Under the pieces are notes generated by a model. It worked only from the letters and a program-made list of their open reading frames with translations. It did no database searches and was not told where the DNA came from. A program made the position numbers and the translations under genes. A stretch of 64,000 nt of DNA. It comes from an uncultured Gammaproteobacteria bacterium (GTDB lineage: Bacteria > Patescibacteriota > Patescibacteriia > SG8-24). The DNA is taken from contig CAZVED010000001.1 in assembly GCA_964626205.1 (NCBI GenBank), forward strand, positions 64,961 to 128,960, given 5' to 3'. Shown here in pieces: positions 807-35,066 of the stretch; the first letter of the stretch is position 1; each line of letters starts with the position of its first letter.

Positions 807-1760
807 TCAGCGGGTGATGAGGGTCGATGCCGACCGCGACTTGGTGAAGAGACCGTCCCGCCAGGTCATGGTTGCGGTCACGGATTTGAGGTAGGCGTCG
901 CCCCCGACGTCCGTGATGGTGAGCGTGCCAGTACCGAGCGGGAGGTCGGCGTAGCTGCGCCGCATCCAGTCCGCCGGGACGGTCCCGACATCGTCGGTAT
1001 CGAAATTCCATACCGTCGTCACCCCGCCTTCTGTCACGACGACGTCGTCGAATGCCATGAGCGCGCCGTTCAGCGCGATGATGCCGATATCGCCGGACGC
1101 GAACGATCCGTCCGCGACCGTCGTGAGCGTGACGCCATCGCGCCGGAGCGTGAAGGAGTTGCTGGACGCGATGATTTGGAGCTCGTACCACGTGCCCGTA
1201 GAATGAGCGACGCTTTGGGACCACAACGTCGTCCGGACACCACCAAGGACGCGGTCCATCGCGATACCGCCGGACGTATACCGGAAGCGGTAGTGGTTCT
1301 CTGCATCACGATAACCGAAGACCACACCCGCACCCCATCCTGCGGGAGAAGAGGAGTCCGCGCGGATGTCTGCCGTGAAAGTGACATTCTCACGGTAATT
1401 GCCAGGGGCAATCATGAGACCTGTTTCCTCGACTGTTGCGGTTTGTGCGGTGCCGATGCGCATCGCCTGCTGTCCTGCGACATCTTGCACCGCCCACCCG
1501 CCGCGCTGGACAGGGGTTCCAAGGAACCGTCCGTCCGTGCGTACGGCTAGTGTTCCGAGCGGGAGGTTCCGTAGCGCTTCAAGTTGTTCCTGCAGAAAAG
1601 CCGCCGCTTGGACCTCATACTGCGTGCGGCGCAGGAAAATGAGACCGGAGATGACGGAGAAATACGTTGCCAAAAGCATCGCGGCGAGGCCGAGGGTAAC
1701 GAGGGTTTCGGCGAGCGTGAAACCGTCTTCGTCGTGGATGGTGCGTCGTATCTGCGGCAT
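807..1760 (-). CDS. type IV pilin-like / pseudopilin (317 aa)
   Basis: N-terminus ...DGFTLAETLVTLGLAAMLL is a prepilin-type motif. ATG at 1760 lies 1 nt after the pilC stop at 1762. Confidence 0.7.
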   Translation of the reverse strand: MPQIRRTIHDEDGFTLAETLVTLGLAAMLLATYFSVISGLIFLRRTQYEVQAAAFLQEQLEALRNLPLGTLAVRTDGRFLGTPVQRGGWAVQDVAGQQAMRIGTAQTATVEETGLMIAPGNYRENVTFTADIRADSSSPAGWGAGVVFGYRDAENHYRFRYTSGGIAMDRVLGGVRTTLWSQSVAHSTGTWYELQIIASSNSFTLRRDGVTLTTVADGSFASGDIGIIALNGALMAFDDVVVTEGGVTTVWNFDTDDVGTVPADWMRRSYADLPLGTGTLTITDVGGDAYLKSVTATMTWRDGLFTKSRSASTLITR

Positions 1761-1761
1761 A

Positions 1762-2856
1762 TTACTGGCTGGCCACGCTCTCGGTGAGCGAGTACATCGG
1801 CATCATGACGGCGAGCGCGATGCCGCCGACCATGCCGCCGAGGATGAGGATGAGGACCGGTTCGATGATGGAGGACAAGTTTGCGAGCGTCTGGTCGACC
1901 TGTTCCTCGTAGAAGCCGGCGACGTCGGCCAGAAGACCGTCGATGTTGCCGGATCGTTCGCCGACGAGCGTCATTTGTACGACGAGCGGGGGATAGAGTT
2001 TCGGATACTCCTTCAGTGTGTCGGAAATGTTGTCACCCTTCTTGATACGCTCCGATGCTTTGAGGACAGAGTCGCGGTAGTGGACGTTGCCGAGCACGGC
2101 TGCCGTGATGACGAGCGATTGCACGACCGGGACATCCGTGCGAAGCAGACTGGAGAACGTGCGCGAGAACCGCGCAAGGTTGACCTTGCGTGCGACCGGA
2201 CCAATGAGCGGACCGCGGATGATGCCGTAATGGAAGATCGCGCGGCCACGGACGGTGTTGCCGAACGCGACAAGCGCGCCGGCGAACGCGAGCGCGGCGA
2301 ACGCCACGAGCAGGCCGTTTTCTTGGACATAGTCGCTCAGGAAGATGAGGATGCGTGTGGGAAGCGGAAGCTGGATATCGCCGAACTCCTTGAAGATGCC
2401 GAGGAGCTTCGGTAGGACGAAGGTGAGGAGGCCGATCGTGATGCCGGACATCGCGACCAAGATGACGATGGGGTAGGTCATCGCACCTTTCACCTTGGAA
2501 CGAAGGTTGTGATCCTTCTTGATCTGGTTCGTGAGTTCCTGAAGGGTGTCTTCGAGCGTACCAGATACCTCGCCGACCTCGATCATCTTGATGAAGATGT
2601 CCGGAAACGCCTTCGGAAACTTCGCGAGTTCGGCGGAGAGCAGCTTGCCTTGATTCACGCCGTCGCGGACTTCGGTGAGAATAACGCGGAAGGTCTTTGA
2701 TTCGGTCTGCATGGCGAGCGTCGCGAGGCCTTCGGAGAGCGACAAGCCTGCATGCACCATGACACGGAGGTTCTCCGTGAAGAACATCTTCTCGGTCAGT
2801 GGGACGCCGGAGTTCCGGATGAGCCAGCGATCGATTTTAGCGAATACTGACGGCAT
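1762..2856 (-). CDS. pilC: type IV pilus / T2SS inner-membrane platform protein PilC/GspF family
   Basis: Polytopic membrane protein with GspF-family repeat architecture. ATG at 2856 overlaps the pilB stop (TGATG); the track's GTG at 2859 is an alternative start. Confidence 0.85.
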   Translation of the reverse strand: MPSVFAKIDRWLIRNSGVPLTEKMFFTENLRVMVHAGLSLSEGLATLAMQTESKTFRVILTEVRDGVNQGKLLSAELAKFPKAFPDIFIKMIEVGEVSGTLEDTLQELTNQIKKDHNLRSKVKGAMTYPIVILVAMSGITIGLLTFVLPKLLGIFKEFGDIQLPLPTRILIFLSDYVQENGLLVAFAALAFAGALVAFGNTVRGRAIFHYGIIRGPLIGPVARKVNLARFSRTFSSLLRTDVPVVQSLVITAAVLGNVHYRDSVLKASERIKKGDNISDTLKEYPKLYPPLVVQMTLVGERSGNIDGLLADVAGFYEEQVDQTLANLSSIIEPVLILILGGMVGGIALAVMMPMYSLTESVASQ

Positions 2857-4616
2857 CACTCTTTGGTTACGCGAAGGATTTCCTCGATGGTCGTGACCCC
2901 CTTGATTGCCTTGATGAAGCCGTCCTCGACCATGAGGAGCATGCCTTGTTCGACTGCCTTGTCTTGGATTTCCGCAGTGGTCGCCTTATGCGCGATAAGG
3001 TCGGCGATCTCCGCGGTGACCTCGAGCGCCTCATGGATGCCGGCGCGGCCTTTGTAGCCGGTGTCGCCGCACTCGTTGCAGCCGGACCCGCTCCAGAACA
3101 TCGTCTCCTCGACGGTTTGCTCTGCCTTCACGACACCTTCGCGCTTGAGGTTCTTCCAGATCCGTTCAAGGTCGACCTGTTCGCGAAGCTGCTCCAGCAC
3201 GTGCGTGGGAATCCGGAAAGAACGCAGACAGTCTTGGCAGACTTTGCGGACGAGGCGTTGGGCGACGATGACGTTGGTCGTGGCGGCGATGAGGAAAGGT
3301 GGGACGTTCATGTCCGTGAGGCGGGGGATGCTCGCAGCGGCGGTGTTGGTGTGGAGCGTGCCAAGCACGAGGTGGCCGGTCATGGCCGCCTGGACGGCGA
3401 TGCCGGCGGTCTCTTCATCGCGGATTTCACCGACCATGATGACGTTCGGGTCTTGGCGGAGGAGTGCGCGGAGGCCTGCAGCGAACGTGAGACCGATCTT
3501 CGCATTCACCTGGGTCTGGTTCACGCCAGGCATGCGGTATTCGATTGGATCTTCGACGGTCGAAAGGTTTACTCCTGGTGTGTTGAGGAGGCCAAGGACG
3601 GAATAGAGCGTCGTTGTTTTTCCGGAGCCTGTCGGACCTGTCACGAGCAGGAGGCCGTGCGGTTTTGCCGCGTTGCGTTCGAGTATCGCTTTGAGCTTCG
3701 GACGGAAGCCGAGCTGGTCGAGCGTGAGCGCCCCGCCGGATTCCTTGAGAAGACGCATGACGATTTTCTCGCCGTCGTAGACCGGAAGGATGCTGACGCG
3801 GAACGCGTACTTGTACTGTGGTGTCTCGATCTTGAAGCGGCCGTCCTGCGGAAGGCGGTGCTCGTCGAGCTTGAGGTTGGAGAGGATCTTGATACGCGCG
3901 ACGATGCCGCTCGCGACCTGTTGCGGGAATGTCATGACTGCGCGAAGCACGCCATCGATGCGGTAGCGCACCGTGATCTCTTTTTCCGCTGGTTCGATAT
4001 GGATGTCGGACGCGCCTTCGAGGATGGCGTGTTCGAGGATGGAGTCGACGACGCGCACGATGGGGATGTCCTCCGCCATCTGCGCGAGCTTCTTGCGTTC
4101 TTCGTCGGATCCGCCTTCCTTTTCCGGAGCGTGCGTGAGTGCGCCGAGTTCGGCGCTGAGACTCTTCTTGTATTGGCTGAGAGCGGTCTCGAGCGACGCG
4201 GGATTGGTGTAGTACACCTTCACCTTGGAGCTCGTCTTTCGCTTGATGAATTCGAATGTCTGGAGGTTTGTCGGGTCGAGCGTCGCGACGCGGAGTTCGT
4301 CGTCTACCTGATCGAACGCGACAATGCCGTGCGATTTCGCGATGGGCTCGGGAATGAGGAAGAGGATATCCTGGCGGATCGGCTGGTCGCGGAGGTTCAC
4401 GAACGGCAGCTTGTAGAACTGCGCCACGATGCGATAGAGCATCTCCTCGGGCATCTTCTTCTCCTTGAGGAGGAACTGTTCCAGCGTCGTATCCTTTCCT
4501 GAGGCGTCCTTTTCCGTAAGCAAATCAGCGAGGCCTTTCGGCGTGAAAGTCCCGGTCTTCCGCAGGATTTTCTTCAGGAGTTCGTCATTGAGCATAGGCG
4601 GCGAGGTTCCCTTCAT
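2856..4616 (-). CDS. pilB: type IV pilus assembly ATPase PilB/GspE family
   Basis: Walker A GPTGSGKTTTLYS. GspE N-terminal domain. C-terminal tetracysteine motif CQDC...CNECGDTGYKGR. 586 aa. Confidence 0.9.
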   Translation of the reverse strand: MKGTSPPMLNDELLKKILRKTGTFTPKGLADLLTEKDASGKDTTLEQFLLKEKKMPEEMLYRIVAQFYKLPFVNLRDQPIRQDILFLIPEPIAKSHGIVAFDQVDDELRVATLDPTNLQTFEFIKRKTSSKVKVYYTNPASLETALSQYKKSLSAELGALTHAPEKEGGSDEERKKLAQMAEDIPIVRVVDSILEHAILEGASDIHIEPAEKEITVRYRIDGVLRAVMTFPQQVASGIVARIKILSNLKLDEHRLPQDGRFKIETPQYKYAFRVSILPVYDGEKIVMRLLKESGGALTLDQLGFRPKLKAILERNAAKPHGLLLVTGPTGSGKTTTLYSVLGLLNTPGVNLSTVEDPIEYRMPGVNQTQVNAKIGLTFAAGLRALLRQDPNVIMVGEIRDEETAGIAVQAAMTGHLVLGTLHTNTAAASIPRLTDMNVPPFLIAATTNVIVAQRLVRKVCQDCLRSFRIPTHVLEQLREQVDLERIWKNLKREGVVKAEQTVEETMFWSGSGCNECGDTGYKGRAGIHEALEVTAEIADLIAHKATTAEIQDKAVEQGMLLMVEDGFIKAIKGVTTIEEILRVTKE

Positions 4617-6124: not shown

Positions 6125-8527
<2,403 letters not shown>

Positions 8528-9656: not shown

Positions 9657-10745
9657 ATGCGGCGCATTCTTTTCACTGGTGGAGGGACACTTGGCCCCGT
9701 GACTCCGCTGCTCGCGGTCGCGGAGGCGGTTCGTGTCCACGTTCCGGATGCGGAGCTTTCATGGATCGGCACGATGACCGGCCCGGAGCGGGCATTGGTG
9801 GAGTCTGCCGGCATTCCGTTCTTCGTCGTTCGGTCGGGGAAGCTGCGGCGGTATTTTTCGTTGCGCAACATCTCCGATATTTTCAACATCAAGATCGGAT
9901 TTTTCCAATCGCTGCGGCTCCTGCGGCGTCTGCGTCCGGATGCGGTTATCTCGGCAGGCGGATTCGTCGCGGTACCGGTCATTTGGGCGGCATGGTTCCT
10001 GAGGATTCCCGTGCACATACACGCGCAGGACATCCGCCCAGGGCTTGCTAACCTGTTATCGCTTCCAGTCGCGAGGTCGGTTTCCGTTGCGTTCGCTCCG
10101 TCGCTCAAGGATTTTGAGCGACATCGTCCGGTTTTGACGGGGAATCCGGTCCGCCGAACGGTGCTGTCCGGGTCGCGTGATACAGCCCGCGAGCTTTTCG
10201 GTCTCGAGCATGACGTCCCGACGTTGCTCGTGCTTGGTGGTGGCACAGGGGCGGCGGGCCTCAATGCGCTCGTTCGCGCCGCAACGCCAGAGCTCGGCGT
10301 GTCGATGCAAGTGCTGCATATCACCGGGAAAGGGAAGGGGGATACGACATTCTCGCATCCGCGGTACCACGCGGTCGAGTTCCTCACGGATGCCATGGCG
10401 CATGCCTATGCCGCTGCCGACCTCGTCGTGACGCGCGCGGGCATCGGGACGCTGTCCGAGCTTGCCGCGCTCGCCAAGCCTGCCGTCATCGTGCCGATGC
10501 CGCGTTCGCATCAGGAAGAGAATGCCGCACACTTTTCCGCTGCCGGAGCGGCAATCACGCTTGATGAGATCACCGTGACGCCGGCATCATTCGCGGAAAC
10601 AGTCCTTGCATTGCATGCCGACGCGGCACGTTTACAGGAACTTCGGAGCGGCATGCAGGCACTCGCTGCTCCTGCTGGTGAGCAAGCGGACGCCGCCGAG
10701 GTTGTCGCGGAGCTCGTGTTGCGGATCGCAAGCAAGGGCGGTTGA
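9657..10745 (+). CDS. murG: undecaprenyldiphospho-muramoylpentapeptide beta-N-acetylglucosaminyltransferase MurG
   Basis: N-terminal MRRILFTGGGTLGPVTP glycine loop. GT28 two-domain fold. C-terminal UDP-GlcNAc binding region. Confidence 0.85.
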   Translation: MRRILFTGGGTLGPVTPLLAVAEAVRVHVPDAELSWIGTMTGPERALVESAGIPFFVVRSGKLRRYFSLRNISDIFNIKIGFFQSLRLLRRLRPDAVISAGGFVAVPVIWAAWFLRIPVHIHAQDIRPGLANLLSLPVARSVSVAFAPSLKDFERHRPVLTGNPVRRTVLSGSRDTARELFGLEHDVPTLLVLGGGTGAAGLNALVRAATPELGVSMQVLHITGKGKGDTTFSHPRYHAVEFLTDAMAHAYAAADLVVTRAGIGTLSELAALAKPAVIVPMPRSHQEENAAHFSAAGAAITLDEITVTPASFAETVLALHADAARLQELRSGMQALAAPAGEQADAAEVVAELVLRIASKGG

Positions 10746-10801
10746 CGCCACGTCGGCACCGACGTACGGTGCATGCACGGTCATTGGAAAGGAGGTTCTT
10801 C

Positions 10802-11050
10802 ATGTCCGACCAGCTTGCGTGGGGTCTCGTCATTTTCGTATTCGGCGCCTTCGCGCTCATCATGCTGGCGTTCGCGCTCCACGAGCGGCGGCGGTCGAAG
10901 GCGTTGCGCGCATACGCCGATGCGCTGGCCGAGCAGAACGAGGAGCTCCGACGCATCATCGCGGGGCGAAGCCGTGCTGCGGACGGCACATTGGAGGACG
11001 TCCTTGAGGAGATGGCCGATCGCCCTGGACCAAGAGACACCATCCATTAG
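10802..11050 (+). CDS. small membrane protein (82 aa)
   Basis: ATG at 10802 is preceded by a GGAGG Shine-Dalgarno. One transmembrane helix plus a charged tail. Followed by an intrinsic terminator. Confidence 0.45.
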   Translation: MSDQLAWGLVIFVFGAFALIMLAFALHERRRSKALRAYADALAEQNEELRRIIAGRSRAADGTLEDVLEEMADRPGPRDTIH

Positions 11051-11057
11051 CTTCCAT

Positions 11058-11084
11058 CACCCCTCCGCAAGGGGTGTTTTTTGT
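11058..11084 (+). terminator. rho-independent terminator
   Basis: cacccctccgcaaggggtg hairpin followed by a U-run. Confidence 0.7.
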
Positions 11085-11085
11085 C

Positions 11086-11114
11086 TTGACAGAACCGTTG
11101 GGTGGCGGTAGGGT
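11086..11114 (+). promoter_or_regulatory. sigma70-like promoter TTGACA-N17-TAGGGT
   Basis: Exact -35 hexamer with 17-nt spacing, upstream of the ORF at 11144. Confidence 0.45.
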
Positions 11115-11143
11115 CACGCGTTGTCCTTTTTCGAGGAGGAAGC

Positions 11144-11632
11144 ATGGATACCGCCCCTATGGTCATGGAGCAGATTGCCTCGTTGTGGAGGTTCATCGGC
11201 CTGCTGGCGATCGCGCTCGCTGCGGCGCTCGCGGTCTGCGCGCACGTATGGTTCCGCCTCAATCGTTTCGAGCGGAGGGAATCGCGCATTATCGCGAATC
11301 TCAAGGGTGAGATCGACGCGATGTCGGATACCATCCGCAGGGCATCTGGCATTGCCAAGCCGAAAGGTGAGGCGATGTACGCCGACGATGCGGAGCCGAA
11401 CGCGGACGAGCTCGACGCCGAGGTGGATGAGTTTCTCTCGCATCCGTTGCCGGAAGGTCGGCCACGCACCATGCTGCCGCCGCCGATGGATGGCATCGCG
11501 ACGGTCACCTCCATCGAGGCCGGTCGGATAAAGCGGAGCGCCGTATCCCGGCTCGATCGCTCCGGCTTGCGACCACGTGCGCCGGGCCCGTTCTCCACGA
11601 CGACGGACGAGACCCCGTTCGATGACAGTTGA
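11144..11632 (+). CDS. hypothetical membrane-anchored protein (162 aa)
   Basis: GGAGGAAG Shine-Dalgarno then ATG. N-terminal transmembrane helix followed by an acidic, proline-rich tail. No recognisable domain. Confidence 0.45.
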   Translation: MDTAPMVMEQIASLWRFIGLLAIALAAALAVCAHVWFRLNRFERRESRIIANLKGEIDAMSDTIRRASGIAKPKGEAMYADDAEPNADELDAEVDEFLSHPLPEGRPRTMLPPPMDGIATVTSIEAGRIKRSAVSRLDRSGLRPRAPGPFSTTTDETPFDDS

Positions 11633-11635
11633 CCG

Positions 11636-11665
11636 ATGACGGCACGCTTGTGCCGTCTTTTTTCT
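11636..11665 (+). terminator. rho-independent terminator
   Basis: gacggcac-gctt-gtgccgtc stem followed by tttttt. Confidence 0.6.
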
Positions 11666-11707
11666 TTCCGTGGTATGCTGCCGGAAACAGCCACCATCAT
11701 CATTATT

Positions 11708-11932
11708 ATGGATAATCTTGCATTCACGGTCGACGATCTGTACGAGGAGGTCAAAGAGAAGGCACGCGAAGAAGGCGCGATGAGCCGCGAAGACTGGCAT
11801 GAGATGGTCGACGAGGTGCTCGACGACAAGTTCGAGTTTCAGGAGATCCATGACGACGAAGATGTCGCGCAGTTGAAGGAGGCTTTGCAGGCGCGGTACG
11901 ACGACTTCATGGTGGAGACGGAAGTGATGTAA
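11708..11932 (+). CDS. small acidic hypothetical protein (74 aa)
   Basis: ATG at 11708; the earlier Met in the track ORF lies inside the terminator. Highly acidic, helical. Candidate extended -10 TGgTATGCT at about 11672. Confidence 0.4.
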   Translation: MDNLAFTVDDLYEEVKEKAREEGAMSREDWHEMVDEVLDDKFEFQEIHDDEDVAQLKEALQARYDDFMVETEVM

Positions 11933-11967
11933 AAAGAAACGCCCTCACGTGAGTGGGGGCGTTTCTT

Positions 11968-12043
11968 TGGTGCGCCGGCCGGGGATCGAACCCGGGACCA
12001 TCAGCTTAAAAGGCTGTTGCTCTACCGGCTGAGCTACCGGCGC
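11968..12043 (-). tRNA. tRNA-Lys (anticodon UUU)
   Basis: Manual cloverleaf on the reverse complement: acceptor GCGCCGG/CCGGCGC, D-arm GCUC-AGCCGGUA-GAGC, anticodon loop CUUUUAA, T-arm CCGGG-UUCGAUC-CCCGG, encoded CCA. Confidence 0.9.
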
Positions 12044-12169
12044 GGAGTCCATTTTTGAGCAGGACAACAATAGCATGGCATGACGGTACAGGCAACGGTC
12101 GGATAGCGGTTGCGATTGAGCCTATTTTTTGCTATACTTTCCTCATACTATTCGCGTAACTGCACGGTC

Positions 12170-12481
12170 ATGACCGATCAGGAATTCGACCTTAAGGAGA
12201 ACGTCATCGCCCAGCTTGGCCTGCAGGAGCTCCCTGAGAACAAGCGGGCGGAACTGCTCGACCAGATGGCGCAGCTCGTGGAGCGACGCGTGATGTTGCG
12301 TCTTATTGATGCGTTGTCCGAAGATGATGTCATCGCGATTGCCGAGCTCGAAGAGAAGCCGGAGGAATTGTTGGCGTACATGGCAACGAAGGTCCCGGAC
12401 ATCACCGCGATCATCGCCGAGGAGACAGAGAAAGTGAAAGCCGAATTGGCCGACGCAGCGAAGGATGAAGACGTGCTTTGA
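12170..12481 (+). CDS. small acidic hypothetical protein (103 aa)
   Basis: TTGCGA-N17-TATACT promoter (extended -10 TGCTATACT at 12130-12138), then ATG at 12170. Helical, glutamate-rich. Confidence 0.45.
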   Translation: MTDQEFDLKENVIAQLGLQELPENKRAELLDQMAQLVERRVMLRLIDALSEDDVIAIAELEEKPEELLAYMATKVPDITAIIAEETEKVKAELADAAKDEDVL

Positions 12482-12487
12482 CGCGCT

Positions 12488-12658
12488 ATGGCGGATGCAG
12501 TGCCGAAAGCAACATTGATTCAGCGGCTGAGCGATGCGCACGTGGTCGTTATGGAGGCTTTGCGGAAGCGGCAAGATGCGTTGCTGGTGCGTGTTATCGG
12601 TCGTATGGATCGTGAACGGGCGGAACGGATTGCAGACGATATCAAGAAAACGATGTAA
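12488..12658 (+). CDS. possible small protein (56 aa), unannotated in the ORF track
   Basis: ATG lies 7 nt after the preceding stop and the ORF ends 12 nt before the next ATG. Sequence MADAVPKATLIQRLSDAHVVVMEALRKRQDALLVRVIGRMDRERAERIADDIKKTM. Fits the tight packing of the locus. Confidence 0.25.
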   Translation: MADAVPKATLIQRLSDAHVVVMEALRKRQDALLVRVIGRMDRERAERIADDIKKTM

Positions 12659-12669
12659 GGTGAACGCCT

Positions 12670-15009
12670 ATGAAAGCACCTGAACGATCGGGAGCGCCGC
12701 AGTCACCGGAGCTTTCCGGTGACGAGACACCGTCGGAAAAATTGCAAAATGAGCAGGATACCGCACAGGGGAGCGGTCTTGAATTGGCGTTGACGCCGGA
12801 GCAGATTGCCGCGGAGAAGAAGGAACGGGCTGCGAAGGCTGCGCGGGCGGTCGAGTTTTCGCTGGCTGACAATAAGGGACGCGAGCGGATGTCTGCTGAC
12901 GCTGCGCGAGAGCGTGAAGATCGTGCCGAGCAGGAGGCGAAAGAAGCGGCGTTCGCCTTGGCGCGAAAATGGCAGGAGCGTGTTCATGCAGGAAAGAAGC
13001 GTATCGAAGAGAAGGCTGCGGAGGACGGGGGGTCGCTGGCACCAGATGAGCAGAAGGAGAACGATGCGATCGTTACGGAAGCAGAACGAGAGTTTGATGC
13101 GTTCAAGGATTCCATGGACGAGTTTGTCATCACCGACAAGGCTGGTATGGAAGAGGCGTTGGTTGCAGATTCCGGAAAGTGGGCGCGTCCTGCAGAGGGG
13201 GAAGGTATTGCTGCTACGGCGTCTGCTGGAGAGGCCGAAGTTGTGCATTCCGCGACACGCATCGAGGACCTCCGTACCTACGCCAAGGAGATGCGCACAA
13301 AACGTGAGACAGTCGCGACGTTGCGCGCCAAACTGACGAAGTACGACGGCATTGGCGGTATCCGTGCATTGCTGCCTGGCGGCGCTTCCGAGAAGTCCAT
13401 GCTTGCCGCAGAGCTCGTGGAAGCCGAGAAGGACTACGAGGCCATGCGTGCGGAGTACGTCGGTGAGAAGGCCTACCGCAAGAACAAGGAAGAAATGCTC
13501 CTCGCGGATGCTGCAGGTGCCGCTTTGACGAAGGAAAAAGGCGTGAGCGGAAAAGTCTACGACGCATACAAGTGGCTCGGCGATCAGAACCTCACCAAGC
13601 TCGGTTGGAAGCCGACGGGCAAGATCGGTGGTATGGTCGCGCGCGGTGTGAGCTTGCGTTCCGGCGTGAACATCGCCTTGATGGGCGGAGGTTTCGCGCT
13701 CGGTGGCGCTGTTGGGGTGGCCGCGACCATTCCCGCAAGGCGCGTCCTCGGAGGCATTTTCGGATCGGCAAGTTCCTTCGATGGCATGCGGCATTTCTTC
13801 GATCGGCAGAAGAGTCTGTCCCAGGCGGAAGTGAAGAAAATGGATTACGCGGAGCTGCTGTCACGCATGGATGCATTGCGTGCACAGGCGGCGACTGGAG
13901 GCCGTGCGGTTTCCAAGGATGCGGAATTTTTGCGCCTTAAGGCCGAGCTCGGCACGCGCGAGAAGTCGGCGCTGGAGCGCGGACTTCTCACGACGGAGTA
14001 TCTCGGAGAGGCAATGGATGCCGCGAATGATCGTCTCAAGAAGGTCGCGAAAAAGCGGGGTATTCGTGATGCTGCGCTTAAGGGAGTCGCGGTAGGGGTC
14101 GGAACCCTCGTCGGAACCGGAGTGCTCGCGGAGGCTGTCGGCGGCGTGGCGAAAGCCGCGACGAAGGTTGGAGCGGAGGCTGGTAAAATCGGGCTCGAGA
14201 TGGCGGACAGCTTTTTCGGTACGAACACGACACCTGTCTTTACGGAGCCTGTCATCACGGAAGCTGTAACGCTACCATCTGCGGCGGAAGGCGTTGTCGA
14301 TGCTCCGCCAGACATCATTCATGAAGCGCCTTCCGATGCGGTGTCGTCAGACATCCTTCCTGATGCGCCGCCTGAGGAGATTGCTGAGCCTGCATCGTCG
14401 GAGGTACCTAATGGAGACACGGAGCCTGCTGCTGAGGGTCCAGTATCGTTGGATGACGCGCTGCTGAAGCCGGGTGAAGAGGTCGGTGTGTCCGACGAGG
14501 CGCGCGATGCGGTTATTGCGAAGATCAAGGCCACACAGGGCGGCTTGCGTACGGGCGGCGATGTCGTTTCAGAGGTGCCGGTTCAGGATATCGCAGAGAC
14601 AGCGAAGACGACGCTTGAGAGCGGACGGTTTACGTTCGATGGGGGTCGTGCGATGTTCGAGACGGACGATGGTGGGCGTGTCATCAGCGTTGCTGTCGAG
14701 GGTAGGGCCTCTGGAATCCCGGGCGTACTGCGGAACGGATATGAGTTCGATATCGGGAAGCAATCAGACTATTACGGCATGGATGAGTCGTTTGCCGTGA
14801 ACATTGGGGAAGGAGAGGCGAGAGACCTGACATTGCAGATGAATGCCTACAAAGCGATGCTGGATGCGGGAAAGCAGGATACGCCGGAAGGGCGCTTCCT
14901 GGTACAGACCATCCGCGCAGGCGCCAATGATCTTCGGAGGAATTTCGGTGCGAAGATGCTGAAGCCGGGCGTCTTCACGACTATCGCGAAATGGACCGGC
15001 GGCGCATAG
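12670..15009 (+). CDS. large hypothetical protein (779 aa): charged coiled-coil N-terminal region, two glycine-zipper hydrophobic segments, acidic P/E linker, C-terminal globular domain
   Basis: Long ORF with normal codon usage for this genome. No signal peptide. Segments GVAVGVGTLVGTGVLAEAVGGVAKAATKVGAEAG and IALMGGGFALGGAVGVAATIPA. No recognisable catalytic motif. Confidence 0.6.
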   Translation: MKAPERSGAPQSPELSGDETPSEKLQNEQDTAQGSGLELALTPEQIAAEKKERAAKAARAVEFSLADNKGRERMSADAAREREDRAEQEAKEAAFALARKWQERVHAGKKRIEEKAAEDGGSLAPDEQKENDAIVTEAEREFDAFKDSMDEFVITDKAGMEEALVADSGKWARPAEGEGIAATASAGEAEVVHSATRIEDLRTYAKEMRTKRETVATLRAKLTKYDGIGGIRALLPGGASEKSMLAAELVEAEKDYEAMRAEYVGEKAYRKNKEEMLLADAAGAALTKEKGVSGKVYDAYKWLGDQNLTKLGWKPTGKIGGMVARGVSLRSGVNIALMGGGFALGGAVGVAATIPARRVLGGIFGSASSFDGMRHFFDRQKSLSQAEVKKMDYAELLSRMDALRAQAATGGRAVSKDAEFLRLKAELGTREKSALERGLLTTEYLGEAMDAANDRLKKVAKKRGIRDAALKGVAVGVGTLVGTGVLAEAVGGVAKAATKVGAEAGKIGLEMADSFFGTNTTPVFTEPVITEAVTLPSAAEGVVDAPPDIIHEAPSDAVSSDILPDAPPEEIAEPASSEVPNGDTEPAAEGPVSLDDALLKPGEEVGVSDEARDAVIAKIKATQGGLRTGGDVVSEVPVQDIAETAKTTLESGRFTFDGGRAMFETDDGGRVISVAVEGRASGIPGVLRNGYEFDIGKQSDYYGMDESFAVNIGEGEARDLTLQMNAYKAMLDAGKQDTPEGRFLVQTIRAGANDLRRNFGAKMLKPGVFTTIAKWTGGA

Positions 15010-15019
15010 GTCCTGATGA

Positions 15020-15053
15020 AAAAACACCCCCGGTCAGCCGGGGGTGTTTTGTT
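15020..15053. terminator. bidirectional intrinsic terminator shared by convergent genes
   Basis: aaaaaa-cacccccggtcagccgggggtg-ttttgtt. The minus-strand stop codon at 15034 lies in the loop. Confidence 0.8.
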
Positions 15054-16116
15054 GTAGGAAGCGGTACACGGCGCGAAACGTCTGGACGTAATGGACGGTG
15101 GGCTTGAGCAGGCCTGGACGCTTGCGGTCGATGCGCCAGGAGTGTTCTTGCGCCCACGTGTCACCATGACGGAGGAGTGCGCGATGCGAGTATTTCGGAC
15201 CGCCGTTGTAGGTAGCCGCGATGAATGCGCCGAGTTCTTCGTCGCCTGCCGCGATGAAGCGCGTGAGGCGCTTCTTCGGGAGGTCGGCGAGGATAGCGTC
15301 CGCGAGGCAGGTCTCCGCCATAGCGGCGTTCTCGTGATCGCGCATACCGCGGATGAAGTTCGGGTCGAGTCGCGCGCGACGGTAGGTCTGACGCATGCCA
15401 CGATACGTCTTCGGCATGAACTGGTATGCGCCACGCGCGCCGACCGGGGAGACGGCGTAGTCGAACGCGTCCCCGCGGTTCACGGCGAATCCGGTGAACG
15501 CACGGCGTATTGCCGTTTCTGGCGCAATGCCGGCAGCGATCTCTGGCGCTACGCGCTCCACGATGGGGAGCGCCATGAGCGTCAGGTTAGACACGAGCGT
15601 TCCGACCGTTTCTTTCGCATGGCCTGGGATCGTCGAGCGGACGCGGCGCTGGGCGAGTATGCTTCGTGCGGAGGACGTTACGTCTGCGAGGTAGGCGATG
15701 CCATCCTCGACGCGGACGTCGTCCGCGAGCTCGTCCGTTGCCGTGATGGTCGTCACGGCCTTGAACCATGGGCGCCCGGAATGATCGCGGACGTTCATGC
15801 GGAAGGCGAGCGTGACGTAGCCAGGCGGGTCGGTGACCTCGTAGACGGTTCCGACGCCGCCACCGCGCGCGGCACGGAGCGAGAACGCTGGGTCCGTGGA
15901 TGCGCCCTTCCAGACATTGATTGCTCGGACTGGTTCATTGGAACCGAGGAGCCATACCGCAACGACTCCGTGGGTCGCGCCGATGTATCGCGTACCGATG
16001 GGTGCACCATCGAGTAGGGTCACCGCTTCGGTCACCCGCGCGCCCGGAATGGACTGTGCCGTGGCTGGCAAGGTAGCGAGGAGGAGCAAGGCGCAGGACA
16101 GAATCAGGTGGCGCAT
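15034..16116 (-). CDS. secreted lytic transglycosylase-like protein (MltB/SLT_2-like C-terminal domain)
   Basis: Signal peptide MRHLILSCALLLLATLPATA. C-terminal GARGAYQFMPKTY resembles the MltB motif G..GQ.QFMPST. Confidence 0.55.
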   Translation of the reverse strand: MRHLILSCALLLLATLPATAQSIPGARVTEAVTLLDGAPIGTRYIGATHGVVAVWLLGSNEPVRAINVWKGASTDPAFSLRAARGGGVGTVYEVTDPPGYVTLAFRMNVRDHSGRPWFKAVTTITATDELADDVRVEDGIAYLADVTSSARSILAQRRVRSTIPGHAKETVGTLVSNLTLMALPIVERVAPEIAAGIAPETAIRRAFTGFAVNRGDAFDYAVSPVGARGAYQFMPKTYRGMRQTYRRARLDPNFIRGMRDHENAAMAETCLADAILADLPKKRLTRFIAAGDEELGAFIAATYNGGPKYSHRALLRHGDTWAQEHSWRIDRKRPGLLKPTVHYVQTFRAVYRFLQQNTPG

Positions 16117-16214
16117 GAGGCTCTCCGTATGATGGGAAATGAGCGGAATCGCAGGATATCCCTATCAAGGAAACGCCAACATGTCAATCCGTCTCCATGC
16201 TATACTTTTCTCAT

Positions 16215-17330
16215 ATGCGCATCGTCATGATCGGACAAAAAGGCCTTCCGGTGCGGAAGGATGCTGGGGGCGTTGAGCGACACGTCGAGGAACTCTCGAC
16301 GCGTCTTGCTGCGCGCGGCCATGAGGTTATCCTGTATGTTCGTGAGCGGTACGCGCCCGTTCCCGGCGCCATGACGCCGGACCGCGTAGAGATCCGCGTG
16401 GCGCCATCCATCCCCACGAAACACCTCGATGCCGTCACGTATTCCTTTACCGCAACGGTGCTTGCGCTGTTCGCTGGCGCGGACGTTTTTCATTATCACG
16501 GCATAGGACCGGCGACGCTCGCATGGATTCCCCGCATCTTCGCTCCGTTCGCGCGTGTGGTCGTGACGTTCCACAGCGTCGATCGGCGGCACGGGAAGTG
16601 GGGAGCGTTCGCCCGTGCGTACCTTGCGTATGCGGAATGGGCGGCACTCGTGTTTCCGCACGCGACCATCGCGGTTTCCAAGACCATTCAGGAGTATTGC
16701 AAACGTGTGCATCGAAAGGATGCCATCTATATTCCGAACGGCGCGAACATTGTCGCGTCGCGCGGAAACGACCGTCTCGCTCGATGGGGACTTACGCCGG
16801 AGCGGTACATTCTGACGGTCGCGCGACTCGTGCCGCAGAAAGGCATCCACCACCTCATCGCCGCATATGGCGGCCTTGAGACCGACATGCCGCTCGTCGT
16901 GGTCGGGGACGGGGGCGGAACGGAACCCTATGTCGCTGGGCTGCAGGATCAGGCGTCCGGATCAAGCTCGGTCATCTTCACCGGCTTCCAGTCCGGTGAG
17001 GCGTTGCGGCAGCTGTACGCGAACGCGTATCTCTATGTGCATCCGTCCGAAGCGGAGGGGTTGTCCATCTCCATTCTGGAAGCCATGGGCGCGGGCAGGT
17101 GTGTTCTTGTGTCCGATATTCCGGAGAACGTGGAGTCCATCGACCATAGCGGGCTCTCTTTTGCCAATGCGAACGTGGATGATCTCCGTGAGGCCATGGG
17201 GGAATTACTGCACCATCCGGAGATCGTCCGGGAGCGCGGTGAGCGTGCTCAGAGGTGGGTGCGCGAGGAGTACGACTGGGGCGTCATCACGACGCGCGTC
17301 CTTGCCGTCTATGGTCTCCGGCAGGCTTGA
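16215..17330 (+). CDS. glycosyltransferase family 4 (GT-B, retaining)
   Basis: N-terminal MRIVMIGQKGLP...GGVERHVEEL. C-terminal E...EGFG-like nucleotide-sugar binding half. Extended -10 TGCTATACT at 16198-16206. Confidence 0.7.
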   Translation: MRIVMIGQKGLPVRKDAGGVERHVEELSTRLAARGHEVILYVRERYAPVPGAMTPDRVEIRVAPSIPTKHLDAVTYSFTATVLALFAGADVFHYHGIGPATLAWIPRIFAPFARVVVTFHSVDRRHGKWGAFARAYLAYAEWAALVFPHATIAVSKTIQEYCKRVHRKDAIYIPNGANIVASRGNDRLARWGLTPERYILTVARLVPQKGIHHLIAAYGGLETDMPLVVVGDGGGTEPYVAGLQDQASGSSSVIFTGFQSGEALRQLYANAYLYVHPSEAEGLSISILEAMGAGRCVLVSDIPENVESIDHSGLSFANANVDDLREAMGELLHHPEIVRERGERAQRWVREEYDWGVITTRVLAVYGLRQA

Positions 17331-17390
17331 CCGGAGGCGCATCGTATGATAGGAGGAAGTGGGGGAAACCCCGTACATGAAGGAGGTCGT

Positions 17391-18974
17391 ATGGAAGATC
17401 TCACGGTCACCGGACTGCGCCGAAAAGCGCGCTATGTCTCGGTGAGTGACCAGCATCTCTCCGAGGGCGCCTTCATCATGGAGGAGGAGCGCCTGTCGTC
17501 GTGGGAGCGTCTTCGTCGCCGGATGCGCGGCGAAGAGATTCCCGTCGCCCGCGTGGCGAATCCGTTGGAGGACTTCCCGCACGACGAGGAGTTTTCCGCG
17601 TTCATGGACCGTCTCTGCGAAGAGGCGTCCGGGTACGATCGGACCACGCTCGTTCTGAATGGTGACAACTACGATTTCCTCGCGGTCCGCTGGAACGGTC
17701 GTTTCAAGGCGTCGGAGATCGAGTACGAGTACGAAGGTGTCGAGAAGATGCGTGTCATCATCGAGGGGCACCCCGTCTACTTCGACGCGCTGGCGCGGTT
17801 TCTCGCACGGCCGGACACGGAAATCGTGTTCCTGCCGGGCAACCACGATCAGCAGCTCATCTGGCCGGAAGTGCAACGGCTTATCGCTTGGCGCATCGGG
17901 GGTATCGACCCTGGTCGTCGCGCGCGCGTCGTCTTCGTGGATGAGGACGAGCGCGAGCATGGAGTGTTCCGGTTCGAGCGTGACGGCTTGCTCTTCGAGC
18001 ATGGTAACAACGCCGACCCGATCAACTCCACGCCGCCCAAATGCATCCGGCATCCGCGCTTCGGGCGCGGCAAGGGGCTTCCGTACATGGAGATGAACTT
18101 CGGCGCCCGCTGGTCCGAAGCCGTCAACCAGATGAAGCTCCGTAACGAGAAGATCGGACGGAACCACTACGCGGAAGGGTCGCACGTCTGGATCCACGCG
18201 TTGCTGTACTCGTGGGGCTGGTGCCGTACTGCGGCATACTGGTTCCTCGTGACAGTGTTCCGGCTCATCCTTCCGTTCTGGACCGAAGGTTGGCTGCGCC
18301 GCATGGGTCTCGTCTCGGCCGTGCTCGTAAGCACGATCTGGGAGGACAAGGGCGCGATGGACCGGTGGTTGGAGCGTATCCGACGTGCGAAGCCGGGCGT
18401 GAAAGTCATTGTCCATGGGCATACGCATGCCGCAGGGCGCAGGACGGAGGTGGTCGACGACGGATCCAAGCGGACCGTCACGGACATCAACACGGGCACG
18501 TGGATCAGCATGATCCGAGTGACCTGGCCGTCGTTCCCGCTCATGTGGGCGCGCTTCCGGTGGCTGGAGTTCCTGTTACGCGCCTTCGGTCGCTTCCTGC
18601 GGACCGGCAAGATCAGCAACGCAAGCAAGATCATCCGGATCGCATGGATGGTCACGGTCGCTGCCGCGCTCGTCCTGTTCCTGCTTGCGAACTTTCCGGA
18701 GGCAGGGAACGACCTGTTCTGGAATATCAGCCCGAACGACATTCGATGGCCTATCGGCATCGTGCTGACGTTCGTCCTGTTCGCCGCCGGCATCCGCATC
18801 TTCGCGGAGCGTCCGGACGAGCAGGTGTTCCGCAAGCTGACGTTCGCGGACATCTCCTACGGTGTCACTGAGACACCGGGGGAGGACGGAAAGACGCTCC
18901 GGACGTTTGATAGCCTCCGCGCGGATTGCATGGAGTGGATCCCGCAGGAATCGGCGACGCGGGAATGCGTCTGA
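17391..18974 (+). CDS. calcineurin-like metallophosphoesterase with C-terminal multi-pass membrane domain
   Basis: AAGGAGG Shine-Dalgarno then ATG at 17391. Phosphoesterase motifs LNGDNYDF (GDxxD), LPGNHDQ (GNHD) and VIVHGHTHAAG (GHxH). Four C-terminal transmembrane helices. Confidence 0.7.
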   Translation: MEDLTVTGLRRKARYVSVSDQHLSEGAFIMEEERLSSWERLRRRMRGEEIPVARVANPLEDFPHDEEFSAFMDRLCEEASGYDRTTLVLNGDNYDFLAVRWNGRFKASEIEYEYEGVEKMRVIIEGHPVYFDALARFLARPDTEIVFLPGNHDQQLIWPEVQRLIAWRIGGIDPGRRARVVFVDEDEREHGVFRFERDGLLFEHGNNADPINSTPPKCIRHPRFGRGKGLPYMEMNFGARWSEAVNQMKLRNEKIGRNHYAEGSHVWIHALLYSWGWCRTAAYWFLVTVFRLILPFWTEGWLRRMGLVSAVLVSTIWEDKGAMDRWLERIRRAKPGVKVIVHGHTHAAGRRTEVVDDGSKRTVTDINTGTWISMIRVTWPSFPLMWARFRWLEFLLRAFGRFLRTGKISNASKIIRIAWMVTVAAALVLFLLANFPEAGNDLFWNISPNDIRWPIGIVLTFVLFAAGIRIFAERPDEQVFRKLTFADISYGVTETPGEDGKTLRTFDSLRADCMEWIPQESATRECV

Positions 18975-34776: not shown

Positions 34777-34852
34777 GCCACCTTAGCTCAGCTGGTAGAG
34801 CAACACTTTTGTAAAGTGAAGGTCCCGGGTTCGATCCCCGGAGGTGGCTCCA
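34777..34852 (+). tRNA. tRNA-Thr (anticodon UGU)
   Basis: Cloverleaf: acceptor GCCACCU/AGGUGGC, anticodon loop UUUGUAA, T-arm CCGGG-UUCGAUC-CCCGG, CCA encoded. Confidence 0.88.
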
Positions 34853-34902
34853 CTCACGTCCGCGATAAGGTCGACGACAATCGAAAACGGCATTTTTCAC
34901 GT

Positions 34903-34987
34903 GGGCCGGTACCCAAGCGGTCAAAGGGGGCGGACTGTAAATCCGCTGGCATCGCCTTCGAAGGTTCGAATCCTTCCCGTCCCACCA
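34903..34987 (+). tRNA. tRNA-Tyr (anticodon GUA), class II with long variable arm
   Basis: Anticodon stem-loop GCGGA-CUGUAAA-UCCGC, long variable arm, T-arm GAAGG-UUCGAAU-CCUUC, CCA encoded. One C:U mismatch in the acceptor stem. Confidence 0.85.
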
Positions 34988-34990
34988 CAT

Positions 34991-35066
34991 GCCGACGTAG
35001 CTCAGTTGGTAGAGCATCTCCATGGTAAGGAGAAGGTCACCGGTTCGATTCCGGTCGTCGGCTCCA
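34991..35066 (+). tRNA. tRNA-Thr (anticodon GGU)
   Basis: Acceptor GCCGACG/CGUCGGC, anticodon stem-loop UCUCC-AUGGUAA-GGAGA, T-arm ACCGG-UUCGAUU-CCGGU, CCA encoded. Confidence 0.88.

Follow-up and report, generated by a model that had tools for sequence, protein, structure and literature searches.

A 64,000-nucleotide stretch of DNA from an uncultured member of the Patescibacteria (contig CAZVED010000001.1; "the window" here means this whole stretch) carries, downstream of murG, genes for proteins of 82, 162, 74, 103, 56, and 779 amino acids (aa) and a gene for tRNA-Lys(UUU). The original prediction grouped them as one orphan module. All of these genes are present where the prediction placed them (open reading frames [ORFs], ARAGORN, and Rfam), and the protein-coding genes are real and uncharacterized, with orthologues under purifying selection. 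The stretch is two unrelated units, however, and not one module. Unit A (positions 10802 to 11932), the three genes before the tRNA gene, is lineage restricted and travels with murG, and unit B (12110 to 15009), an operon of the 103-, 56-, and 779-aa genes, is separate and widespread in many contexts. Unit B pairs a protein of the Pfam family DUF5663 with a large glycine-zipper protein and is the main subject of this report.

Gene-neighborhood comparison shows that the small ORFs are conserved in relatives and that none has been lost. Orthologues of all six proteins occur in unchanged order on related contigs (loci are numbered with an L below), with ratios of nonsynonymous to synonymous substitution rates (dN/dS) of 0.07 to 0.67. 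In a public protein collection, five of the six have gene calls that agree in length, the 56-aa ORF among them; the 74-aa gene is called there with a longer start. Relatives come from metagenome-assembled genomes labeled Paceibacterota, Liptonbacteria, and Uhrbacteria, all of the Parcubacteria group.

The DUF5663 operon and its large protein

Unit B is predicted to be transcribed as one operon. A promoter-like site at 12110 to 12138 on the plus strand (TTGCGA, 17 nt, TATACT, and an extended -10 TG; a consensus match only) precedes the gene for the 103-aa protein (12170 to 12481, plus strand), and an analogous TTGACA/TATATT site lies before the DUF5663 gene of L020. The gene for the 56-aa protein (12488 to 12658, plus strand) starts 6 nt after the first gene and ends 11 nt before the gene for the 779-aa protein (12670 to 15009, plus strand). 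Because there is one upstream promoter-like site and the gaps are 6 and 11 nt, we infer that the three genes form an operon. Of the promoters and terminators earlier proposed for the small genes, there are predicted terminators after the 82-, 162-, and 74-aa genes and a predicted promoter before the 103-aa gene; the 103-, 56-, and 779-aa genes share a single operon.

The first gene of unit B belongs to a cataloged family and is no orphan. Its acidic helical product matches Pfam DUF5663 (PF18908) with 27.4 bits (gathering cutoff, 23.7) over profile positions 2 to 83 of 84, and alignment with 14 other DUF5663 proteins reveals the invariant residues N11, L16, L49, and E85. The gene evolves with a dN/dS of 0.23. 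In 20 of 21 loci, the DUF5663 gene is adjacent to and co-oriented with the gene for the large protein, which it precedes in some lineages and follows in others, and the single unpaired locus is on a contig that breaks off within the large gene. Moreover, DUF5663 proteins are uniformly acidic (isoelectric point [pI], 4.1 to 5.3), and the core segments that flank the zippers of the large protein are basic (pI, 9.4 to 9.8). By gene order the pairing is obligate, and the complementary charges are in keeping with DUF5663 as a partner of the large protein. No fusion of the two was found in the 117 family members, a search of PDB sequences with the DUF5663 profile returned nothing reliable, and in the literature that was searched, no paper mentions DUF5663 and no record of its pairing with a glycine-zipper protein was found.

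The second gene of unit B encodes a basic helical protein (pI, 10) whose orthologue in L001 is 70% identical (dN/dS of 0.14 for the window/L001 pair). Where DUF5663 is upstream with a spacing of 120 to 235 nt, a basic helical ORF of 56 to 80 aa fills the gap (the window, L001, L002, L003, L006, L008, and L015). The positional homologues in L002, L003, L006, L008, and L015, which are 57 to 80 aa long, have a common hydrophobic pattern and a basic pI of 8 to 10.8.

The 779-aa protein, like the 103-aa protein, has lost its orphan status. An exhaustive phmmer search over 1.84 billion cluster representatives returned 117 matches at E values of ≤1e-3, 75 of them at ≤1e-10, so that the family comprises at least 117 clusters as defined at 50% identity; a word-index search found only three relatives. 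Genome scans depended on the alignment: the first, with 4 sequences, gave no matches; an alignment of 29 sequences was too diverse for search patterns; and one of 7 sequences found 6 genome loci and 5 metagenome loci. A profile of the core (residues ~190 to 511) matches every one of the 116 family sequences, at values between 1e-18 and 1e-113, and the window protein at 4.5e-98. The first part of the core contains the motifs YE..RAEYVG and YK.LG..NL.K.GWKP and then the first glycine zipper between two arginines. In the second part, RR..SG.....GSYDL is followed by a helical stretch of ~110 residues and by the second zipper, K..A.G.G..VGSG..AK.

What surrounds the core differs among members. N-terminal regions are 42 to 932 residues long and rich in E, K, and A. 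Pfam recognized only N-terminal domains in 100 members: HHH_5, directly before the core, in three (P0057, residues 96 to 150; P0062, residues 26 to 78; and P0060, residues 49 to 101) and a partial DnaJ (J) domain in one (P0025, residues 270 to 303). These domains hint at lineage-specific cytoplasmic adaptors, for DNA and DnaK, respectively. Variability within the family is greatest in the C-terminal regions. By iterative profile search, at least 40 of the 106 members carry the C-terminal domain, as one to three copies in tandem; in 31 members the final copy lies at the very C terminus. The usual ending is ...PEA.FL...I....LEK.YGDILK, of which the window protein has a variant. An internal duplication of the core, in which helices plus zipper would occur twice, was considered and rejected (hhalign probability of 2.8%).

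The three-part anatomy proposed for the 779-aa protein was borne out by AlphaFold2: a charged helical N-terminal half, glycine zippers at residues 335 to 357 and 466 to 490, and a P/E/D-rich linker followed by a folded C-terminal domain. In the model, long helices occupy residues 40 to 490, disorder extends from 492 to 644, and an alpha/beta domain folds from 645 to 779. Residues 1 to 189 (12670 to 13236) are a variable, acidic, charged region of long helices (pI, 4.6; predicted local distance difference test [pLDDT] of 80 to 95 for residues 40 to 150) and are conserved only among close relatives. Residues 190 to 511 (13237 to 14202) are the all-helical family core of ~320 aa, as delimited by the local profile and alignment, and contain both zippers. 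Zipper helix 1 (residues 331 to 357; 13660 to 13740) is bracketed by the nearly invariant Arg330 and Arg358, and zipper helix 2 (residues 466 to 490; 14065 to 14139) is the less hydrophobic of the two. The segment of ~110 residues between the zippers is basic (pI, 9.8) and highly charged. The linker (residues 492 to 644; 14143 to 14601) is acidic, with a pI of 4.05, 15 prolines, and a pLDDT below 50, and the conserved C-terminal domain (residues 645 to 779 plus the stop codon; 14602 to 15009) is predicted as a three-strand meander followed by three helices (pLDDT, 88 to 94).

How the large protein meets the membrane is predicted from its zippers. Both zipper helices have high Eisenberg hydrophobicity and a low hydrophobic moment, and a [GAS]xxxGxxx[GAS] motif is found in helix 1 of 85% and in helix 2 of 86% of the members. 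A core-only AlphaFold2 model reached a predicted TM score of 0.72, with helix 1 as its least confident part (pLDDT, 44 to 57). We read the two segments as membrane helices because of their high hydrophobicity, the conservation of the zippers at ~85%, the invariant arginines at helix 1, and the fact that AlphaFold2 is confident of the soluble helices but not of helix 1. Across the family, the N-terminal flank of helix 1 averages 4.0 K+R and 0.3 D+E per 15 residues and its C-terminal flank averages 1.0 and 0.9, and the charges flanking helix 2 are ambiguous. The 779-aa protein has neither an N-terminal hydrophobic segment nor a signal peptide. The lack of a signal peptide, the positive N-terminal flank of helix 1, and the N-terminal J and helix-hairpin-helix (HhH) domains of some members together place the N terminus in the cytoplasm.

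Searches for known relatives of the large protein gave little. Pfam, NCBIfam, PHROGs, and PADLOC searches with all seven proteins examined returned only DUF5663 and the sub-threshold SLT and endolysin matches described below, and the PADLOC anti-phage defense models matched none of the seven. In PDB sequences, the core profile found nothing reliable (a 50-residue vinculin helix match with an E value of 8e-4 was judged to be helical noise), and the C-terminal-domain profile likewise found no reliable match. Foldseek against the PDB, with full-length and core-only models, gave best E values of 0.18 to 0.36 to ABC-exporter transmembrane domains, G protein-coupled receptors, and XaxB; the fold matches to XaxB/PaxB (E, 0.6 to 1.5; TM score, ~0.12) are not significant. 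Against BFVD, the best look-alikes were tape-measure and minor-tail proteins, with E values of ≥2.5e-3 and a TM score of ~0.1. Moreover, tblastn with the large protein found no match in 50,697 phage genomes, and the IMG/VR contigs contained no relative. Pfam matched the components VirB6/TrbL, PrgH, VirB8, and VirB3 of type IV secretion systems (T4SS) in neither the window protein nor the 100 members, and the protein has only two hydrophobic segments. The earlier statement that it has no signal peptide and no recognizable catalytic motif holds, no known family was found in Pfam, NCBIfam, the PDB, PHROGs, or PADLOC, and no known housekeeping family gave a clear match. On the evidence of these comparisons, we conclude that the large protein represents a previously undescribed family without a detectable relative of known function or fold. 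The newness applies to the level of the family and not to a mechanism.

Genomic contexts of the operon

Unit B is firmly a chromosomal, non-mobile, and vertically inherited module across the Parcubacteria group. Besides DUF5663, its neighbors vary by lineage and are genes of the core genome (infC-rpmI-rplT, RNase Y, RNase J, clpP, recA, gyrB, and ftsH). These neighbors, together with the lack of phage, plasmid-like, or defense matches, are why we regard the module as housekeeping-type and non-mobile. One 2.5-kb contig (L007; JBAIXY010000051.1) is binned as Vicinamibacterales, and its ORF N termini and gene spacing are identical to those of L003; the contig is probably mis-binned.

Several of the neighbors, which belong to different gene clusters in independent lineages, act in division or in cell wall synthesis. 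In L020, ftsA-ftsZ lies directly upstream of the pair; mraZ-rsmH-ftsL-ftsI adjoins it in L006, ftsE-ftsX in L005, and ftsK plus a PGM/PMM-family phosphohexomutase gene (possibly GlmM) in L009. In the window lineage, ftsW-murG and murD are a few genes away. Counted over the ~13 independent contexts, a division or cell-wall-precursor gene lies within three genes of the pair in four. The neighborhood link to division genes is suggestive, and the association with the envelope or division that had been proposed from the neighbors of the window genes thus gains some support from the placement of the pair in other genomes.

Genes for ATPases of the type IV coupling protein (T4CP) kind are also found near the pair. 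The gene for a T4CP-like ATPase (DUF87, TraG-D_C, and TrwB_AAD_bind; DUF8128 in a precomputed annotation) immediately follows the pair in L004 (4811 to 7630) and lies one gene further on in L005 (13118 to 15871). L005 also has a possibly related gene for an 866-aa protein (10505 to 13105), which has only N-terminal residues in common with the T4CP-like ATPase of that locus. In L008, genes for a VirB4-like ATPase (Pfam P-loop_TraG, AAA_10, and DUF87; 982 to 4290) and for a small protein that reads as PrgI-like lie 5 kb upstream of the pair. Among 5,713 T4CP homologues in Patescibacteria, most are not near virB4 and may be exapted for other functions, according to a 2025 survey (PMC12102498). 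In the literature searched, we found no papers on DUF8128 or on glycine zippers together with Patescibacteria.

Separately, a sigma-70 gene of the extracytoplasmic function (ECF) type is located within a few kilobases of the module in at least three lineages (L006, 13312 to 13812; L012, 14538 to 15101; L016, 1439 to 1993; and L017, 17807 to 18361). The copies in L006 and L012 were recognized by Pfam, and those in L016 and L017 by BLAST clustering with them.

The genes after murG and the setting of the window

Unit A was found only in a narrow lineage, the window and two close relatives (L018 and L019), always directly after murG. The gene order is ftsW-murG-94 aa-175 aa-74 aa in L018 and murG-88 aa-171 aa-99 aa in L019. 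The first gene (10802 to 11050, plus strand) encodes an 82-aa single-pass membrane protein with an N-terminal transmembrane helix at residues 8 to 27 (insertion estimate of -3.5 kcal/mol), a basic stretch, a short coiled coil, and an acidic tail. Its orthologues directly 3' of murG, of 94 aa in L018 and 88 aa in L019, have in common with it a YAD..(A)QN(D/E)E motif and a C-terminal ..I/LH, and dN/dS is ~0.5. An intrinsic-terminator-like hairpin with a U-run follows at 11058 to 11085 on the plus strand (-11.5 kcal/mol; z, -2.2). The second gene (11144 to 11632, plus strand) encodes a 162-aa single-pass membrane protein with a transmembrane helix at residues 17 to 35 (-0.9 kcal/mol), a short helix, and a proline-rich acidic tail. 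A word-index search with this protein matched only the protein itself. Positional orthologues of 175 aa (L018) and 171 aa (L019) have the transmembrane helix, an ...E(I/L)D... helix, and a C-terminal RL(D/E)R.GLRP....GPF motif in common with it, and dN/dS is ~0.6. A predicted intrinsic terminator with a U-run lies at 11638 to 11667 on the plus strand (-15.1 kcal/mol; z, -4.8).

Both membrane proteins of unit A evolve fast (34 to 42% identity; dN/dS of about 0.5 to 0.65), and both have a basic cluster after the transmembrane helix (HERRRSK and FRLNRFERR), so that their C-terminal parts are predicted to be cytoplasmic. An identity as FtsB, FtsL, or DivIC was considered for the two and rejected, as Pfam and NCBIfam gave no profile match and the predicted topology, with the C terminus inside, is opposite to that of FtsB/FtsL. 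The third gene (11708 to 11932, plus strand) encodes a 74-aa, very acidic soluble protein (pI, 4.05) with orthologues at the same position that are 91% (L018) and 82% (L019) identical. No other gene of the stretch is as constrained: its dN/dS is 0.07 to 0.16, compared to 0.18 for murG, and its product may deserve separate study. None of the three unit A proteins has a family match in Pfam, NCBIfam, PHROGs, or PADLOC.

The two units are separated by the tRNA-Lys gene (anticodon UUU; 11968 to 12043, minus strand; Rfam tRNA, 71.5 bits), and Rfam found nothing besides this tRNA. A 16-bp GC-rich hairpin at 11933 to 11968, flanked by an A-run and, on the opposite side, by a U-run (-27.9 kcal/mol; z, -7.6), is predicted to act as a bidirectional terminator common to the 74-aa gene and the tRNA gene. 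In L018, an inserted gene for a 193-aa P-loop kinase (PRK/AAA_33-like; 3762 to 4343) separates the 74-aa gene from the tRNA gene. L018 ends inside tRNA-Lys, and L001, from the same sample, starts just before DUF5663, so that the closest relative probably has the same overall order, apart from the inserted kinase gene. As these two contigs of one sample both break at tRNA-Lys, its flank looks like a variable spot.

The window is otherwise typical of Patescibacteria (candidate phyla radiation) in gene content. Its G+C content is ~60% throughout, and the composition of the stretch from 10802 to 15009 is the same as that of the flanks. Genes for the type IV pilus proteins PilB and PilC (1762 to 4616, minus strand) are followed by mraY, lon, ftsW, and murG, as assigned by Pfam, and murG lies upstream of the small genes. 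The full-length lon protease gene (6125 to 8527, plus strand), between mraY and ftsW, splits the normally contiguous division and cell wall (dcw) cluster. A tRNA cluster is located at 34777 to 35066 on the plus strand (Thr[UGU], Tyr[GUA], and Thr[GGU]).

Convergent with the large gene is a gene for a predicted secreted protein of 360 aa (15034 to 16116, minus strand), a neighbor outside the conserved module. Its label as lytic-transglycosylase-like now rests on sub-threshold matches of a weakly lysozyme/SLT-like C-terminal region, to SLT (PF01464; 15.5 bits, where the cutoff is 21.3; E, 0.013) and to a PHROG endolysin (1.3e-4). The motif SPVGARGAYQFMPKT is visible in the protein, and the catalytic Glu could not be placed ahead of it by eye. 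Orthologues are confined to the window's own lineage (74% in L001 and 24% in L002), and the gene is absent from L003 and all distant loci. Further downstream are genes for a family 4 glycosyltransferase (GT4) and a membrane metallophosphoesterase, followed by murD. In the window's lineage, the order of a GT4 gene and then a gene for a 500- to 540-aa protein is kept downstream of the large gene and before murD (window, 16197 to 18974, plus strand; L002, 5403 to 8167; and L003, 4687 to 7522). The window copy of the latter, the one copy compared with Pfam, has a weak calcineurin-like phosphoesterase match there, and the L002 and L003 counterparts align with it by tblastn at 32 to 34% identity.

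Possible roles of the operon and known systems

How unit B serves the cell can be proposed from its anatomy and contexts. We favor, tentatively and as the likeliest of several readings though at less than even odds, a membrane-anchored oligomerizing scaffold that acts in the cell envelope or in division, with DUF5663 as its obligate partner. The large protein would be held in the cytoplasmic membrane by its two conserved glycine-zipper helices, which probably drive homo-oligomerization, and the basic flanks of the core would lie against the membrane. The variable charged N-terminal region would face the cytoplasm as an adaptor, one equipped in some lineages with an HhH domain that binds DNA or with a J domain, and a long, flexible acidic linker would tether the C-terminal domain. 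DUF5663, itself acidic, and the small basic protein might bind the large protein as stoichiometric partners or assembly factors. Such a complex could serve as a membrane scaffold for envelope growth or division in the manner of EzrA, ZipA, or DivIVA-type scaffolds, to which it would be unrelated. A bolder version, which we think unlikely, is that the trio is a membrane machine specific to Parcubacteria and without a counterpart in other organisms. It would be either the missing FtsZ/nucleoid-to-membrane organizer in these reduced cells or, more radically, a conduit of oligomerized glycine zippers that orphan VirD4-like ATPases would energize and small chaperones would load, for the passage of DNA or other macromolecules through an episymbiont's envelope.

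Several observations weigh against the scaffold. The median insertion estimates of the zipper helices are marginal, at +2.7 (helix 1) and +4.6 (helix 2) kcal/mol on a simplified Hessa scale on which the unit A proteins reach -3.5 and -0.9 and FtsW helices reach -2 to -4 kcal/mol. The protein might therefore be peripheral, re-entrant, or post-translationally inserting. Beyond helix 1, a C-terminal half that is inside (two spans), one that is outside (one span), and a monotopic protein are all compatible with the predictions. Searches of Pfam, PDB sequences, and Foldseek found neither homology nor fold similarity between the large protein and division or scaffold proteins. The enrichment near division genes is modest, as a rough estimate of the probability of such adjacency by chance ranges from 0.006 to 0.13 depending on the gene-clustering model, and four other contexts lie near infC-rpmI-rplT instead. 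Within the 64-kb window itself, ftsA and ftsZ are absent, as are ftsK, ftsI, and ftsX. Finally, we infer physical contact between DUF5663 and the large protein from gene order only.

Other roles would account for part of the evidence. If the large protein were a type II membrane protein with its N terminus inside, helix 1 alone would span, and the inter-zipper domain, the linker, and the C-terminal repeats would lie outside to bind the wall, an S-layer, or a host surface. Of the two helices, helix 1 is clearly the more transmembrane-like, and the C-terminal domain, in its one to three tandem copies, follows a proline-rich acidic linker; tandem domains after such a linker are common in wall-binding modules of monoderm surface proteins. 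Also in keeping with display are the variability of the C-terminal regions and the position of the window gene, which is convergent with that of a secreted lysozyme-like protein and adjoins a GT4 gene. The lysozyme-like neighbor is confined to the window's own lineage, however, and no known wall-binding or adhesin domain was found in 100 members. Moreover, the inter-zipper segment has the basic, highly charged character of a cytoplasmic one, and the conservation of helix 2 and its zipper motif equals that of helix 1, an observation that sits poorly with a helix that is merely soluble. We consider external display doubtful. Somewhat more doubtful is that the zipper helices oligomerize into a channel and that the protein is a conduit or accessory for the translocation of DNA or protein, working with the orphan VirD4-like coupling ATPases that abound in Patescibacteria. 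Glycine zippers are typical of homo-oligomeric channels, and that general association speaks for a conduit, as do the T4CP-like ATPases near the pair in L004 and L005 and the VirB4-like ATPase with its PrgI-like companion in L008. In an approximate neighbor-joining tree, the group of the L004 member also holds HhH-bearing members, and the L005 member falls in a neighboring group. Orphan T4CPs have possibly been exapted, but the same survey of neighborhoods around virB4 shows nothing resembling the 779-aa family (PMC12102498). The ATPases adjoin the pair in only two of ~13 independent lineages, the 64-kb window has no T4CP-like or VirB4-like gene, and neither VirB6/TrbL nor PrgH nor any other T4SS component is similar to the large protein.

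A chaperoned pore-former or translocator, kept soluble by DUF5663 and the small helical protein for later insertion, through its marginally hydrophobic zipper helices, into the cell's own or a host membrane, is improbable. Genes for small helical partners do adjoin the gene for a large protein that is helical and has two segments of moderate hydrophobicity, a classical transmembrane helix would need stronger insertion energies, there is no signal peptide, and XaxB/PaxB appear among the weak fold look-alikes. Those fold matches fall short of significance, however, and the cytoplasmic-type HhH and J domains of some members fit a resident protein. The gene is also single copy, core-genome-like, and vertically inherited, with no immunity-like neighbor, and no dedicated secretion system is consistently linked to it. 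The resemblance to tape-measure proteins that the original prediction had raised fares worst, and a phage tape-measure-like protein or prophage remnant is effectively refuted. Tape-measure and minor-tail proteins, with their long helices and Gly-rich hydrophobic segments, were indeed the best BFVD look-alikes (best E, 2.5e-3), but at a TM score of ~0.1 we read the likeness as a common texture of long helices and Gly-rich segments. No PHROG or Pfam profile, none of the 50,697 phage genomes, and no IMG/VR contig matched, the base composition equals that of the flanks, and the neighbors are housekeeping genes in every locus.

Why a scaffold of this kind would matter follows from the biology of the group. 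Parcubacteria and other Patescibacteria have tiny genomes in which many textbook envelope and division factors are missing and a large share of the conserved genes is without an assigned function. Here, an apparent orphan becomes a definable, testable unit with a mapped core, two zipper helices, a C-terminal domain, a DUF5663 partner, and a recurrent placement near division genes, and DUF5663 gains a first functional handle. The core, the C-terminal domain, and the partner pair are defined as constructs for work on interaction, topology, and localization. If the complex is a divisome or nucleoid-membrane organizer, or a translocation conduit of a new kind, it would close a real gap in the picture of how ultra-small episymbionts build and divide their envelope. 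If not, it is one more conserved hypothetical family, now well delimited.

Compared to known systems, the large protein is a partial match to several. The MPF-FATA-like type IV secretion genes of Patescibacteria (PMC12102498) have a parallel in the T4CP-like and VirB4-like ATPase genes near the pair in L004, L005, and L008, but the large protein matches no T4SS component profile, and the ATPase linkage is found in a minority of lineages and not in the window. Phage tape-measure proteins are similar in their long helices and internal Gly-rich hydrophobic segments and differ in having neither sequence homology with the large protein nor a phage context in common with it. Type III secretion system (T3SS) translocators with their class II chaperones and alpha-helical pore-forming toxins of the XaxAB/YaxAB type are likewise large helical proteins with coiled coils, two moderately hydrophobic segments, and a small acidic helical partner encoded next to them. 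In contrast to them, unit B has no T3SS alongside it and no profile match, its hydrophobic segments are ~110 residues apart without a hairpin, and some members carry HhH or J domains.

The divisome scaffolds ZipA, EzrA, DivIVA, and SepF resemble the large protein in combining a long cytoplasmic helical or coiled-coil region with a membrane anchor. ZipA in particular combines a charged region with a proline-rich, flexible linker and a globular C-terminal domain of ~140 aa. The large protein differs from all four in that its two glycine-zipper helices are internal, in place of an N-terminal transmembrane or amphipathic helix, and in its predicted obligate DUF5663 partner. The four gave no Pfam or NCBIfam match at E values of ≤1, and for neither model do they appear in the listed 50 best PDB fold matches. 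The likeness extends to gene position, as the pair of L020 sits directly after ftsA-ftsZ. The 103-aa protein, finally, agrees with Pfam DUF5663 in size and in its acidic helical character. DUF5663 is a family without an assigned function, and its pairing with a large glycine-zipper protein was observed in this analysis.

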